Shown: piece after piece, positions 2,856 to 10,977 of the stretch
How the letters are laid out: every line of letters begins with the position of its first letter
How positions within the stretch are numbered: position 1 is the first letter of the stretch
From: a virus
Taxonomy: Duplodnaviria; Heunggongvirae; Uroviricota; Caudoviricetes
DNA length: 10,977 nt
Virus record (IMG/VR): IMGVR_UViG_2648501338_000003
Reading direction: 5' to 3' (one strand)
Notes under the pieces: model-generated
Seen by the model: the letters and a program-made list of their open reading frames with translations, nothing else
Database searches by the model: none
What the model was told of the DNA's origin: nothing
Program-made: the position numbers and the translations under genes

Positions 2856-4444
2856 AACGAACGCCTGTCCTGATTGATGTGAACGGCGTTCCGCTTCGTG
2901 AGAGTCTCAGCTACAACGGGGGCGGCGCAGGATTTGGCGGGCAAATGGCGGAGTGGTTGCCACCGGCGCAGAGTGCCGATGCAGCCCTGCTGCCTGCGTT
3001 GCGTCTGGGGAATGCCCGGGCAGATGATCTGGTGCGCAATAACGGGATAGCGGCCAATGCGGTGGCACTGCATAAGGATCATATTGTCGGGCATATGTTT
3101 CTGATCAGCTACCGTCCGAACTGGCGCTGGCTGGGGATGCGGGAGACTGCGGCAAAAAGTTTTGTCGATGAGGTGGAGGCGGCCTGGTCGGAATACGCCG
3201 AAGGGATGTCTGGCGAGATCGACGTGGAAGAGAAACGCACGTTTACGGAATTTATTCGTGAAGGTGTGGGCGTTCATGCGTTTAACGGCGAAATCTTTGT
3301 GCAGCCGGTCTGGGATACGGAGAGCACGCAACTGTTTCGTACGCGTTTTAAAGCCGTGAGTCCGAAACGGGTGGACACGCCAGGACACGGTATGGGGAAC
3401 CGTTTTCTGCGGGCCGGTGTGGAGGTCGATCGATATGGTCGTGCCGTTGCGTACCATATCTGTGAGGATGATTTTCCGTTCTCTGGGAGTGGACGATGGG
3501 AACGGATCCCGCGTGAACTTCCCACCGGGCGTCCGGCCATGCTGCATATTTTCGAGCCGGTGGAGGACGGGCAGACCCGTGGGGCCAATCAGTTTTACAG
3601 CGTAATGGAACGGCTGAAGATGCTCGATTCCCTGCAGGCAACACAGCTTCAGTCGGCCATAGTGAAGGCGATGTATGCAGCGACGATTGAAAGTGACCTT
3701 GATACCGAAAAGGCCTTTGAATATATCGCCGGTGCGCCGCAGGGGCAGAAGGATAATCCGCTTATTAATATTCTGGATAAGTTCTCCACCTGGTATGACA
3801 CGAATAGCGTGACGCTGGGCGGTGTCAAAATTCCGCACCTTTTCCCCGGTGATGATCTGAAACTTCAGACCGCGCAGGATTCAGACAATGGATTTTCGGC
3901 GCTTGAACAGGCGCTGCTGCGGTATATCGCCGCCGGTCTTGGCGTTTCCTACGAACAGTTGTCCCGTGATTACTCGAAGGTCAGTTATTCAAGTGCCCGC
4001 GCATCCGCCAATGAGTCGTGGCGCTATTTTATGGGGCGGCGAAAATTTATTGCGTCCCGGCTGGCCACGCAGATGTTTTCCTGCTGGCTGGAAGAGGCAC
4101 TTCTTCGGGGGATTATTCGTCCGCCACGGGCACGTTTTGATTTTTATCAGGCGCGATCAGCCTGGTCACGGGCTGAGTGGATTGGAGCCGGAAGAATGGC
4201 CATTGACGGGCTCAAGGAGGTTCAGGAATCAGTGATGCGCATTGAGGCCGGACTGAGCACGTATGAGAAAGAGCTGGCGCTGATGGGCGAGGATTATCAG
4301 GACATTTTCCGCCAGCAGGTCAGGGAATCTGCAGAGCGGGAAAAAGCCGGACTCTCACGTCCGGTGTGGATAGCGCAGGCGTATCAGCAGCAGATAGCGG
4401 AGAGTCGCAGGCCGGAAGAGGAGACAACACCACGTGAGACGTAA
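2852..4444 (+). CDS. B: portal protein (gpB-like)
   Basis: 530 aa with strong full-length similarity to lambda gpB (GNARADDLVRNNG, FEPVEDGQTRGANQFYSVME, LQTAQDSDNGFS, LLRYIAAGLGVSYEQLSR, GRMAIDGLKEVQE). Its ATG overlaps the W stop in an ATGA arrangement. Confidence 0.93.
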   Translation: MKRTPVLIDVNGVPLRESLSYNGGGAGFGGQMAEWLPPAQSADAALLPALRLGNARADDLVRNNGIAANAVALHKDHIVGHMFLISYRPNWRWLGMRETAAKSFVDEVEAAWSEYAEGMSGEIDVEEKRTFTEFIREGVGVHAFNGEIFVQPVWDTESTQLFRTRFKAVSPKRVDTPGHGMGNRFLRAGVEVDRYGRAVAYHICEDDFPFSGSGRWERIPRELPTGRPAMLHIFEPVEDGQTRGANQFYSVMERLKMLDSLQATQLQSAIVKAMYAATIESDLDTEKAFEYIAGAPQGQKDNPLINILDKFSTWYDTNSVTLGGVKIPHLFPGDDLKLQTAQDSDNGFSALEQALLRYIAAGLGVSYEQLSRDYSKVSYSSARASANESWRYFMGRRKFIASRLATQMFSCWLEEALLRGIIRPPRARFDFYQARSAWSRAEWIGAGRMAIDGLKEVQESVMRIEAGLSTYEKELALMGEDYQDIFRQQVRESAEREKAGLSRPVWIAQAYQQQIAESRRPEEETTPRET

Positions 4445-5939
4445 TCTTTCACACATTATTGCCGCAGCATTCAATGAACCGCTGCTTCTGGAGCCCGCCT
4501 ATGCGCGGGTTTTCTTTTGCGCGCTCGGGCGCGAGATGGGGGCAGCAAGTCTTTCGGTACCACAACAGCAGGTACAGCTTGATGCTCCCGGAATGCTGGC
4601 TGAAACGGACGAGTACATGGCCGGAGGTAAACGACCGGCCCGTGTTTACCGGGTGGTGAACGGTATTGCGGTACTGCCGGTGACCGGCACGCTGGTGCAC
4701 CGGCTGGGGGGGATGCGGCCATTTTCCGGAATGACAGGCTATGACGGCATTGTCGCCTGTCTTCAGCAGGCAATGGCAGATAGCCAGGTGCGGGGCATAC
4801 TGCTGGACATTGACAGTCCGGGCGGGCAGGCCGCCGGCGCGTTTGACTGCGCTGACATGATTTACCGCCTCCGTCAGCAGAAGCCGGTCTGGGCACTGTG
4901 CAATGACACGGCCTGTTCTGCAGCCATGCTGCTGGCGTCGGCCTGCTCCCGACGGCTGGTTACCCAGACATCCCGTATCGGCTCCATTGGCGTGATGATG
5001 AGCCATGTCAGCTATGCCGGTCATCTGGCGCAGGCCGGTGTGGATATCACGCTGATTTACTCAGGGGCGCACAAGGTGGATGGCAATCAGTTTGAAGCCT
5101 TACCGGCAGAGGTTCGCCAGGACATGCAGCAGCGCATTGATGCGGCGCGCCGGATGTTTGCCGAAAAAGTGGCGATGTTTACCGGTCTGTCTGTTGATGC
5201 CGTCACGGGAACAGAGGCCGCCGTTTTTGAAGGTCAGTCCGGCATTGAGGCCGGGCTGGCGGATGAATTAGTCAATGCGTCGGATGCCATCAGTGTGATG
5301 GCCACGGCGCTGAACAGTAATGTCAGAGGAGGCACTATGCCGCAATTAACTGCAACGGAAGCCGCCGCGCAGGAGAACCAGCGAGTGATGGGGATCCTGA
5401 CATGCCAGGAAGCGAAAGGACGTGAACAGCTTGCCACGATGCTGGCAGGACAACAGGGCATGAGCGTTGAACAGGCCCGGGCGATTCTGGCCGCGGCGGC
5501 ACCGCAGCAGCCGGTGGCATCCACGCAGAGTGAAGCCGATCGCATTATGGCGTGTGAAGAAGCGAACGGTCGTGAACAACTGGCGGCAACGCTGGCGGCG
5601 ATGCCGGAGATGACGGTGGAAAAAGCCCGCCCGATCCTGGCTGCTTCACCGCAGGCGGATGCCGGACCCTCACTCCGTGATCAGATCATGGCACTGGATG
5701 AGGCAAAAGGGGCTGAGGCGCAGGCTGAACAGCTGGCTGCCTGCCCGGGAATGACTGTGGAGAGCGCCCGGGCTGTGCTGGCTGCGGGATCAGGTAAGGC
5801 AGAACCGGTCTCTGCATCCACAACCGCCCTGTTTGAACGCATCATGGCGAACCATTCACCGGCAGCGGTACAGGGTGGCGTGCCACAGACGTCAGCAGAC
5901 GGTGATGCGGACGTGAAAATGCTCATGGCCATGCCATGA
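4434..5939 (+). CDS. C: head maturation protease / scaffold protein (gpC-like, S49/ClpP-type serine protease domain), with an extended repeat-containing C-terminal region
   Basis: 501 aa. The N-terminal 300 aa align with lambda gpC (AFNEPLLLEPAYARVFFCAL, GIAVLPVTGTLV, MTGYDGI, AGAFDCAD, KPVWALCNDTACSAA, SRRLVTQTSRIGSIGVMM, ITLIYSGAHKVDGN, GLSVDAV, TEAAVFEGQ, AGLADELVN). Proposed GTG start at 4434 follows AGAGGAG at 4417-4423; the exact start is uncertain. Overlaps the portal stop by 11 nt. Confidence 0.88.
   Translation: MRRNLSHIIAAAFNEPLLLEPAYARVFFCALGREMGAASLSVPQQQVQLDAPGMLAETDEYMAGGKRPARVYRVVNGIAVLPVTGTLVHRLGGMRPFSGMTGYDGIVACLQQAMADSQVRGILLDIDSPGGQAAGAFDCADMIYRLRQQKPVWALCNDTACSAAMLLASACSRRLVTQTSRIGSIGVMMSHVSYAGHLAQAGVDITLIYSGAHKVDGNQFEALPAEVRQDMQQRIDAARRMFAEKVAMFTGLSVDAVTGTEAAVFEGQSGIEAGLADELVNASDAISVMATALNSNVRGGTMPQLTATEAAAQENQRVMGILTCQEAKGREQLATMLAGQQGMSVEQARAILAAAAPQQPVASTQSEADRIMACEEANGREQLAATLAAMPEMTVEKARPILAASPQADAGPSLRDQIMALDEAKGAEAQAEQLAACPGMTVESARAVLAAGSGKAEPVSASTTALFERIMANHSPAAVQGGVPQTSADGDADVKMLMAMP
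5337..5939 (+). CDS. nu3: candidate nested in-frame scaffold protein (Nu3-like), produced by internal initiation within C
   Basis: In lambda, Nu3 is translated from an internal in-frame start in the 3-prime part of C. Here an in-frame ATG at 5337 is preceded by a strong Shine-Dalgarno sequence AGAGGAGG (5325-5332) and would give about 200 aa containing the scaffold repeats. The start is inferred, not proven. Confidence 0.4.
   Translation: MPQLTATEAAAQENQRVMGILTCQEAKGREQLATMLAGQQGMSVEQARAILAAAAPQQPVASTQSEADRIMACEEANGREQLAATLAAMPEMTVEKARPILAASPQADAGPSLRDQIMALDEAKGAEAQAEQLAACPGMTVESARAVLAAGSGKAEPVSASTTALFERIMANHSPAAVQGGVPQTSADGDADVKMLMAMP
5385..5840 (+). repeat. three diverged tandem copies of a roughly 47-53 aa scaffold motif (IMxxxEAxGREQLAxxLAxxPGMTVExARxILAA) within C/Nu3
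   Basis: Protein-level repeats begin at nt 5385 (VMGILTCQEAKGREQLATMLAGQQGMSVEQARAILAAA), 5544 (IMACEEANGREQLAATLAAMPEMTVEKARPILAAS) and 5685 (IMALDEAKGAEAQAEQLAACPGMTVESARAVLAAG), followed by a vestigial fourth IMA at about 5838. The copies are diverged at the DNA level. Confidence 0.75.
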
Positions 5940-5975
5940 AGTCAGTGCTGACCATCAACAGGAGGTTTTTACAAT

Positions 5976-6323
5976 ATGGTAACGAAAACCATCACTGAAC
6001 AGCGTGCGGAAGTACGTATTTTTGCCGGTAATGATCCGGCTCATACCGCCACAGGCAGCAGCGGGATTTCCTCGGCAACACCGGCACTGACGCCCCTGAT
6101 GCTGGATGAAGCCACCGGGAAACTGGTGGTCTGGGACGGACAGAAAGCCGGTAGTGCAGTTGGCATACTGGTACTGCCGCTTGAAGGCACAGAGACGGTA
6201 CTGACCTATTACAAGTCGGGGACCTTTGCGACGGAGGCAATCCGCTGGCCTGAAAGTGTGGATGAACACAAAAAGGCAAATGCCTTTGCCGGCAGTGCCC
6301 TGAGTCACGCGGCGCTGCCGTAA
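5976..6323 (+). CDS. D: head decoration protein (gpD-like)
   Basis: 115 aa, similar to lambda gpD (DPAHTATGSSG, PLMLDEATGKLVVWDG, AVGIL, YYKSGTF, AFAGSA). AGGAGG at 5960-5965 precedes the ATG at 5976. Confidence 0.92.
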   Translation: MVTKTITEQRAEVRIFAGNDPAHTATGSSGISSATPALTPLMLDEATGKLVVWDGQKAGSAVGILVLPLEGTETVLTYYKSGTFATEAIRWPESVDEHKKANAFAGSALSHAALP

Positions 6324-9895: not shown

Positions 9896-10328
9896 ATGTT
9901 TCTGAAAACAGAACAATTTGAATATAACGGTGTGTCCGTCACGCTTTCCGAATTGTCTGCGCTGCAGCGTATCGAGCATCTTGCCCTCCTGAAACGGCGT
10001 GCAGAACAGGCAGAATCCAGCGGCAACCTGCAGGTAAGCGTGGAAGATCTCGTCAGAACCGGCGCGTTTCTGGTGGCGATGTCCCTGTGGCATAACCATC
10101 CACAGAAAACGGCAGTCACCGTCAATGAATGAGGCCGTGATGAAGATAGAACAGGAAGTGCTCACCACCTGGCCTGCCGATGCCATTGCCCGGGCGGAAG
10201 ACGTGGTGTTGCGCCTGTCCGGGATGAGCGAAGCTGTTCATCCGGATACTGACAGCACCGAAGTGGCGAAAAATAACACGCTGACTGATGATGATTTTTC
10301 TGCGGGAAAGTCTTCGACGGCGAGCTGA
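9896..10328 (+). pseudogene. G: tail assembly chaperone G, interrupted by a +1 frame break near 10110-10125 (fragments 9896-10132 and 10125-10328)
   Basis: ORF 9896-10132 (MFLKTEQFEYNGVSVTLSELSALQRIEHLALLKR...WHNHPQKT) matches the N-terminal part of lambda gpG. ORF 10125-10328 (MNEAVMKIEQEVLTTWPADAIARAEDVVLRLSGM...AGKSSTAS) matches the C-terminal part but is in a different frame. The homologous reading resumes one nucleotide out of frame, consistent with a single extra base near 10112. Confidence 0.6.
10304..10310 (+). other. -1 programmed ribosomal frameshift slippery heptamer G GGA AAG (G to G-T fusion)
   Basis: GGGAAAG at 10304-10310 is positioned as G|GGA|AAG in the G reading frame, 6 codons before the G stop. 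The -1 frame is open from here to 10813. This is the same heptamer and position as the lambda G-T frameshift. Confidence 0.8.
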
Positions 10329-10813
10329 ACTTTACCCTCAGACTGGCGCGTGAGATGGGGAGACCCGACTGGCGCGCCATGCTTGCCGGGATGACATCCA
10401 CCGAATATGCCGACTGGCGCGCCATGCTTGCCGGGATGACATCCACCGAATATGCCGACTGGCGACATTTTTACCGCACGCATTATTTTCACGATACCCA
10501 ACTGGATATGCATTTTTCCGGGCTGACGTACGCCGTACTCAGCCTGTTTTTTTGCGATCCGGATATGCATCCCTCTGATTTCAGTCTGCTTGCCCCCCGG
10601 CATGAGGAAGAGCAGACGGAGAGGCCGGATGAGGAAAAAATGCTGATGCAGAAAGCGGCAGGACTTGCCGGAGGCGTCCGGTTCGGTGGGGACGGAGGGC
10701 GCGATATTTTATCGTCTGCGGATGTGGCGGATGTCATGGTGGATGATGCCGCATTAATGATGGCTTCAGCGGGGATTCCGGGAGGTGTGAGATATGTCCC
10801 AGCCGGTTGGTGA
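10304..10813 (+). CDS. T: T segment of the G-T tail assembly fusion protein (no independent start; reached by -1 frameshift from G)
   Basis: The -1 frame from the slippery site reads GKVFDGELNFTLRLAREMGRPDWRAMLAGM...HYFHD...LDMHFSGLTY...LSLFF.DPDMHP.DFSLL...LMQKAAGLAGGVRFG...GGVRY, matching lambda gpT as I recall it. It ends at TGA 10811-10813, overlapping the H start. Confidence 0.75.
   Translation, partial: GKVFDGELNFTLRLAREMGRPDWRAMLAGMTSTEYADWRAMLAGMTSTEYADWRHFYRTHYFHDTQLDMHFSGLTYAVLSLFFCDPDMHPSDFSLLAPRHEEEQTERPDEEKMLMQKAAGLAGGVRFGGDGGRDILSSADVADVMVDDAALMMASAGIPGGVRYVPAGW
10367..10456 (+). repeat. perfect 45-bp tandem duplication (2 x gactggcgcgccatgcttgccgggatgacatccaccgaatatgcc), encoding DWRAMLAGMTSTEYA twice in the T frame
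   Basis: Copies at 10367-10411 and 10412-10456 are 100 percent identical. Each copy and the downstream flank (10457-10464) begin with the same 8-bp gactggcg. The duplication is in frame (15 aa) in the T reading frame. Confidence 0.9.
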
Positions 10814-10977
10814 TCTTGTTATTGACCTGAGTCTGGATGCGGTCCGTTTCGATGAGCAGATGAGCCGGGTAAGGCGTCATTTTTCAGGTCTGGATACCGA
10901 CGTCAGAAAAACCGCCAGTGCTGTTGAACAGGGCCTGAGCCGCCAGGCGCTGGCTGCACAAAAAGCCGGGATTTCCG
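10794..10977 (+). CDS. H: tail tape-measure protein H, N-terminal fragment (continues beyond the window)
   Basis: The ATG at 10794 is preceded by GGAGGTG at 10781-10787. The translation MSQPVGDLVIDLSLDAVRFDEQMSRVRRHFSG...LSRQALAAQKAGIS matches the lambda gpH N-terminus (MAEPVGDLVVDLSLDAARFDEQMARVRRHFSG). It is absent from the ORF track because it runs off the window end. Confidence 0.88.
   Translation, partial: MSQPVGDLVIDLSLDAVRFDEQMSRVRRHFSGLDTDVRKTASAVEQGLSRQALAAQKAGIS

Follow-up and report, generated by a model that had tools for sequence, protein, structure and literature searches.

Three diverged tandem units in the scaffold region of a phage 21-type capsid protease gene, and their distribution among lambda-type relatives

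The tailed-phage sequence IMGVR_UViG_2648501338_000003 (Caudoviricetes), a stretch of 10,977 nucleotides (nt) that is called the window in the following, contains a gene of the lambda C type, which encodes a prohead protease fused in frame with a scaffold region. We confirmed that this scaffold region contains three diverged tandem units of about 45 amino acids (aa). An initial annotation, made from the sequence alone, had placed three tandem copies of a motif of roughly 50 aa in the Nu3-like C-terminal part of a C-type S49 protease gene, and Pfam, the phrog_53 profile and the gene order of the window all agreed with this placement. The repeats, the nested scaffold gene and its start are already known, because phage 21 has carried them in its public annotation for decades, since GenBank entry M81255. 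Comparison with relatives indicated that one unit is the usual state and probably the ancestral one, and that the three units represent a real expansion that, judged from the sequences surveyed, marks the enterobacterial phage 21/Gifsy-type clade. The features of the gene are as follows (window positions, strand, description):

4434..5939, +, C-type gene (phage 21 gene 5) with a GTG start, 501 aa, S49 prohead protease fused in frame with the scaffold region
4869..5312, +, Peptidase_S49 domain, aa 146-293 (Pfam PF01343, E = 6e-35, 120.9 bits versus a cut-off of 24.9)
5325..5332, +, predicted Shine-Dalgarno (SD) sequence AGAGGAGG of the nested scaffold gene, anti-SD duplex of -12.0 kcal/mol
5337..5939, +, putative nested in-frame scaffold gene (phage 21 gene 6, Nu3 analogue), 200 aa, with the same start in M81255 and OL657228
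5373..5507, +, unit 1 (Tri1 box), aa 314-358, 79.9 bits with the unit hidden Markov model (HMM)
5532..5654, +, unit 2 (Tri box 2), aa 367-407, 80.7 bits with the unit HMM
5673..5798, +, unit 3 (Tri3 box), aa 414-455, 77.9 bits with the unit HMM
5799..5936, +, C-terminal tail common to single-unit scaffolds, ending in the hydrophobic motif MLMAMP

The three repeat starts that had been proposed, 5385 (VMGIL), 5544 (IMACEE) and 5685 (IMALDE), are all in frame and all open homologous stretches, and the HMM set the unit length at about 45 aa, with a start-to-start spacing of 159 nt and then 141 nt. Pairwise local alignment with BLOSUM62 yielded scores of 101 for units 1 and 2, 85 for units 1 and 3, and 97 for units 2 and 3. 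Composition-preserving shuffles scored 25-26 +/- 5, corresponding to z-scores of 11-16 for the real pairs, and the observed scores were reached in none of the 2000 shuffles. As A, E, Q and L abound here, the repeat could have been a composition artefact of an Ala/Glu-rich low-complexity region. The shuffles showed, however, that alanine richness does not account for it, and a profile built from the units retrieved the unit in 438 representative proteins. Taken together, these two results refute a composition artefact, to which we assign a negligible probability.

The units follow the consensus R-I-M-G-I...EAxGRE...PGMTVExAxxILAAAP and are followed by the tail motif. In unit 3 of the E. coli lineage, the EAxGRE turn reads EAKGAE, so that Ala replaces a near-invariant Arg. 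At the DNA level the units have only short words in common, which indicates that the copies are old. One such word, xGAxCxxATxATGGC, is found at 5537, 5678 and 5834, that is, at the onsets of units 2 and 3 and of an incomplete fourth repeat. The third of these sites (5834-5848) falls in FERIMANHS (nt 5832-5858), the beginning of a partial fourth copy with which the tail opens; an alignment of the tail with whole units gave no significant score. The tail itself aligns across homologues, and its motif F-x-x-x-M...HSP/HPNV is kept in stand-alone scaffolds.

The gene at 4434-5939 is 98.7% identical to its counterparts in phage 21 and phage ev017 at the nucleotide level over its full length of 1506 nt. 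In M81255 ('Bacteriophage 21 head gene operon'), gene 5 is the same open reading frame (ORF), and a nested gene 6 is annotated with a putative ribosome-binding site (RBS) and a start that maps to window position 5337. The same entry labels three stretches as repeat_region, under the names 'Tri1 box', 'Tri box' and 'Tri3 box', and describes them as 'function unknown; putative'. They map to window positions 5404-5507, 5544-5654 and 5685-5798, respectively; boxes 2 and 3 begin exactly at the coordinates of the initial annotation (5544 and 5685), and the boxes and our HMM units end at identical codons (358, 407 and 455). In the complete genome of 2022 (OL657228), the gene pair is annotated as 'capsid protease/scaffolding protein' and 'scaffolding protein', and the RBS is likewise marked. 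When the literature was searched for the first paper on the head genes of phage 21, only the genome announcement of 2022 came up, which lists M81255 as a previous fragment (PMC9119081). Genes 5 and 6 of phage 21 resemble the window gene in the GTG start, the nested ATG with its RBS, the three repeats ending at the same codons, and the flanking portal, shp (D-like) and major capsid genes; they differ by a few aa substitutions, e.g. ALFERIM in the window versus AMFEHFM in phage 21. The scaffold region is also widespread in the host. It was found in 1,870 of 5,426 complete E. coli genomes, i.e. about a third, with up to five copies per genome, and in these genomes the Prokaryotic Genome Annotation Pipeline labels the region only as 'S49 family peptidase'.

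A strong internal SD sequence with an ATG at 5337 had also been noted just upstream of the repeats. Among the in-frame internal starts of the gene, AGAGGAGG, located 4 nt before this ATG, has the strongest anti-SD pairing, with the next-best candidate reaching -7.8 kcal/mol, and the ATG coincides with the annotated start of gene 6. The site was compared in a representative set of 62 homologues that are less than 95% identical to one another. A Met codon within six alignment columns of window Met302 was present in all 62, and lambda Met309 occupies exactly the column of Met302. An SD sequence of -6 kcal/mol or stronger preceded this Met in 55 of the 62 representatives, compared with 5.6% of the 952 other internal Met codons of the same genes that served as background; at -9 kcal/mol, the values were 24 of 62 and 0.6%. 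In addition, gene calls on 95 public contigs match the 200-aa scaffold product of the window exactly, and among public sequences gene finders have called the nested gene many times as a stand-alone ORF of 115-170 aa. The suggested nested start therefore holds up at the sequence level, where a nested scaffold gene at 5337 is strongly supported, and we infer that this phage produces the internal protein.

The same alignment bears on the annotation of lambda nu3. In RefSeq and GenBank, nu3 starts at nt 5132 (Met239 of C) and encodes 201 aa. The Met239 codon has a weak SD sequence, Met is found at this position in 7 of the 62 representatives, and the window has Ile. The family-conserved start in lambda is Met309 at nt 5342, which is preceded by CAGGAGGGCGAATG (-10.8 kcal/mol) and would yield a Nu3 of 131 aa. 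In our lambda locus (L003, from NC_001416), the two versions span 833-1438 and 1043-1438, corresponding to the starts at nt 5132 and 5342, respectively. The profile of PHROG 8399 ('head scaffolding protein') has 131 positions, and the 131-aa product appears among the gene calls of 165 public contigs. In biochemical work, Nu3 is regarded as a protein of about 13 kDa.

Next, the number of units was determined in relatives. A protein homologue search with the scaffold retrieved mostly truncated, 'partial' proteins, and therefore copy number was surveyed on DNA loci: 160 relative loci were taken from viral and bacterial genome collections, and the units were counted in each C-type ORF. In the 62 representatives, 45 ORFs contained one unit, 11 contained three, one contained two, one contained four, and in four no unit was detected. 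All homologues whose protease domain is at least 68% identical had three units, apart from three exceptions, which are the variants described below; the three-unit homologues came from genomes of E. coli, Shigella, E. albertii, Salmonella, Trabulsiella and Providencia. One unit was the rule in homologues of 42-62% identity, lambda-like or more distant, which came from genomes of Enterobacter, Klebsiella, Kluyvera, Serratia, Vibrio, Pseudomonas and Marinobacter; the exceptions were one Buttiauxella sequence with two weak units and four distant sequences without a detected unit. A profile of the three window units yielded 438 matches with E <= 0.001 among 1.84 billion representative proteins. 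Of the best 150 of these 438 matches, 139 have one unit, and among the proteins of at least 380 aa within these 150, one-unit and three-unit proteins numbered 55 and 1, respectively. Two-unit arrays that arose independently were found in distant stand-alone scaffolds. The initial annotation had regarded the repeats as an expansion relative to lambda; as lambda and most of its relatives carry one unit, and three units are thus not shared by all relatives, the expansion is real.

Three IMG/VR prophage contigs carry natural variants in unit number or length. One (L066) has two units, owing to a clean hybrid of units 1 and 2 with the junction in the common GREQLA; another (L054) has a 19-aa deletion inside unit 2; and the third (L082) has four units, of which units 2-4 are nearly identical to one another. 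The frame and the C-terminal tail are intact in all three variants. The length of the scaffold, counted from the nested Met, increases with unit number, with medians of 136, 150, 200 and 236 aa for one, two, three and four units. The N-terminal linker has a median length of 47 aa in one-unit scaffolds versus 12 aa in three-unit scaffolds.

The sequences of the units also point to the order in which they arose. In a tree of units, the first units of E. coli, Shigella, Trabulsiella, Salmonella and Providencia prophage sequences group together, as do the second units of E. coli and Salmonella, and the third units of E. coli, Shigella, Salmonella and Trabulsiella; the second unit of Trabulsiella and the second and third units of Providencia fall outside these groups. 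Unit 1 keeps the VMG residues found in single-unit homologues, and units 2 and 3 have both lost these three aa. Unit 1 also has the best score with the lambda unit (130, z = 20.6). By these comparisons, unit 1 is the orthologue of the single lambda unit. The likely history is that unit 1 gave rise to a duplicate and that a second duplication followed, all before these prophage lineages split. Both duplications would have occurred by in-frame unequal recombination in the ancestor of the phage 21/Gifsy-type clade.

Besides phage 21, two groups of known proteins are close to the window gene. Lambda C (NC_001416, 4418-5737) has 439 aa, so that the statement that the window protein is about 60 aa longer was accurate (501 aa, a difference of 62 aa), and it contains exactly one unit, at aa 357-400, with the sequence that the initial annotation had quoted. 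The two proteins are 59% identical and have the domain order, the unit and the tail motif in common, and the nested SD sequence and ATG of lambda (Met309, nt 5342) align with those of the window. They differ in that lambda has one unit after a linker of about 48 aa, whereas the window has three after a linker of 12 aa. The gpC proteins of Gifsy-1-type and other Salmonella prophages are about 70% identical to the window in the protease domain, their three units are orthologous one-to-one to those of the window, and the same nested SD sequence and ATG are present. In contrast to the window, their unit 3 keeps the Arg of EAKGRE, and they have a longer C-terminal tail (...IPGT...).

The ratio of nonsynonymous to synonymous substitution rates (dN/dS) was determined for the window-type sequence versus four diverged three-unit homologues and one close one. 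The values were 0.03-0.09 for unit 1, 0.06-0.24 for unit 2 and 0.06-0.34 for unit 3, compared with 0.10-0.19 for the protease domain and mostly higher values for the inter-unit linkers and the tail. Every unit is thus under purifying selection, and the constraint loosens from unit 1 to unit 3. The core residues are kept in all three units of E. coli, Salmonella, Trabulsiella and Providencia sequences, with synonymous sites near saturation.

The fold of the unit was predicted with AlphaFold2. For unit 1, an alignment of 54 sequences of diverse single-unit scaffolds was used as input. The model had a predicted local distance difference test (pLDDT) score of 83.4, with values above 90 at residues 11-50 of the 61-aa query, and a predicted template modelling (pTM) score of 0.64. 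It contains three helices (residues 3-18, 27-34 and 41-50 of the query), and the module is laid out as helix, EAxGRE turn, helix, PGMT turn, helix. According to this model, the unit is probably a conserved folded module, a small three-helix bundle for which no specific structural relative was found. The whole 200-aa scaffold, modelled from a 13-sequence alignment, appeared as helical beads on a string. In the BFVD, every high-probability match was to the corresponding region of another S49 prohead protease, one of them from a cyanophage. A sequence search of the PDB with the 200-aa scaffold returned only a chance match (E = 1.3), so that no solved structure shares its sequence, and a Foldseek search of the PDB with the whole-scaffold model, which is too poor to use (pLDDT 60), gave no match. 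No solved structure of any lambda-type scaffold turned up. In a Pfam check, which the initial annotation had proposed, Helix-hairpin-helix (PF00633) matched in unit 3 only, and membership was rejected because the match reached 13.1 bits versus a cut-off of 24 (E = 0.093).

With moderate confidence, we favor the reading that this is a phage 21-type version of the lambda C/Nu3 gene, in which the modules bind protein and hold the scaffold and the protease in the assembling shell, and in which three modules make the binding multivalent. One reading frame would yield two proteins with a common C-terminus, namely the 501-aa S49 prohead protease and the nested 200-aa scaffold. The region in common would comprise a 12-aa linker, three modules of about 45 aa and the conserved tail, and each module is predicted to fold autonomously into a three-helix bundle. 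The module would tie the scaffold to the inner face of the assembling coat-protein shell, and the protease would be carried into the procapsid via the C-terminus that it has in common with the scaffold. Three modules would make each molecule trivalent, and copy number would set the valency. The binding partner of the module and the effect of copy number on valency are inferred here. For lambda, interactions of Nu3 with E, with itself, with C and with B have been reported (PMC3224144). Several points weigh against the favored reading. In M81255, the internal product of phage 21 is marked as 'putative'. The AlphaFold2 model of the whole scaffold is poor (pLDDT 60, pTM 0.22). The third unit of the E. 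coli lineage is without the near-invariant Arg. The two-unit variant and the variant with the 19-aa deletion in unit 2 occur in prophages that may or may not be viable, and they suggest that three full units may not all be needed. Finally, in the papers that were read, no experiment identifies a binding partner of the unit.

The unit might instead be a self-association module, so that the array would be a covalent substitute for oligomers of single-unit scaffolds rather than three coat-binding sites. The Nu3-Nu3 interaction and the Nu3 dimers reported for lambda (PMC3224144) are in line with this, as is the shortening of the linker from a median of 47 to 12 aa in three-unit scaffolds, as if another part had become dispensable. 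However, nothing maps self-association to the unit, and the whole-scaffold model with its pTM of 0.22 shows no confident packing of the three units against one another, and we regard this explanation as unlikely. It is also conceivable that unequal crossing-over produced the extra units, that these are mostly redundant and tolerated, and that unit 1 alone does the work. Such redundancy would fit the drop in constraint from unit 1 to unit 3, the loss of the Arg in unit 3 of the E. coli lineage, and the natural two-unit, four-unit and unit 2 deletion variants. Yet dN/dS is well below 1 for all three units, the core residues have been kept despite near-saturated synonymous sites, and the three-unit form is the norm in the 1,870 E. 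coli genomes that carry the region, all of which makes redundancy improbable in our view. Lastly, copy number could act via the length or volume of the scaffold, i.e. as a spacer or ruler, and not via the number of binding sites. The stepwise increase of the median scaffold length with unit number would be expected in this case, but disordered linkers would suffice for such a role, and the units show the conservation pattern of folded domains. Furthermore, lambda and phage 21 both have homologous E-type coat and D-type decoration proteins, and no size difference is known. We consider a spacer or ruler very improbable.

The favored reading, in which the modules bind protein, has a parallel in phage P22, where a C-terminal helix-turn-helix motif of the scaffold gp8 is described as docking on the coat protein (PMC11922011). 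The two are alike by analogy only, in that a scaffold carries a small helical module close to its C-terminus; gp8 differs in having a single copy and no fused protease, and no sequence or fold match of the window scaffold to a P22-type helix-turn-helix coat-binding domain was found. Tandem three-helix-bundle modules of other proteins, i.e. staphylococcal protein A domains, albumin-binding GA modules and UBA/CUE domains, were listed for comparison as well. A broader version of the favored reading, which we advance only tentatively and think doubtful, is that every lambda-type scaffold makes its contacts with the coat (or with other scaffold molecules) through this unit, and that valency follows directly from its copy number. 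If this were true, the phage 21-type scaffold would be a covalent trimer of the lambda-type element, and fewer scaffold molecules would be needed per procapsid. The natural alleles with one, two, three and four units would then form a ready series for studying scaffold valency in capsid assembly. As a discovery, the repeat has little weight, since it is an annotated feature of phage 21 and occurs in roughly one in three complete E. coli genomes. As a lead, it has modest value, because the function of the Tri boxes is recorded as unknown, and they now appear as a conserved module with a clade-specific triplication under purifying selection. Together with the natural two-unit and four-unit alleles, these features would allow scaffold valency to be tested simply in a classical genetic system.

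The genomic setting of the gene is that of a lambda-type head region. The late operon of the window lies on the plus strand in the order Nu1-A-B-C-D-E-FI-FII-Z-U-V, as judged from Pfam matches and ORFs, with Phage_portal_2 upstream of the C-type gene, and HDPD and Phage_cap_E downstream. The 501-aa product matches the head maturation protease family phrog_53 with E = 7e-229. Window Ser162 aligns with Ser166 of lambda C, inside an invariant CSA motif; Ser166 is reportedly the nucleophile of the lambda protease (Medina et al. 2010). An Rfam scan of the window matched no family. Scans for promoters and terminators found none inside the repeats (5373-5858), and one weak match of each kind downstream (5948-6017) was at or near the expectation from shuffled sequences. 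No Pfam family matched the two ORFs on the opposite strand (5234-5545 and 5681-5932), which were rejected as genes and regarded as chance ORFs of a GC-rich sequence. In OL657228, 'transcription factor CII' binding sites are annotated inside the scaffold gene at window positions 5342-5355 and 5576-5589 on the minus strand. Their basis is solely a match to the pattern ttgynnnnnnttgy, and they were discounted because, by our own estimate, several such matches per genome are expected by chance.

The window is a mosaic. Its head module is 98.7% identical to phage 21, whereas in the G/T tail region (9896-10850) the identity is only 73% with phage 21 and about 97% with Stx2a-converting phages. Within the T part of this G-T tail chaperone region (PF06223), a perfect tandem duplication of 45 bp (10365-10464, 2.2 copies, 100% match) adds DWRAMLAGMTSTEYA in frame. 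In a base-by-base comparison, the duplication was not present in the 97%-identical Stx2a phage, and it is apparently not present in the other best phage matches, which are also 45 nt shorter. An insertion of 1 nt near 10115 breaks the tail chaperone gene G (9896-10328) into two ORFs, of 78 and 67 aa, whereas G is intact in the 97%-identical Stx2a phage LC727840, with an ORF of 143 aa. The split G suggests a defective prophage or a sequencing error.

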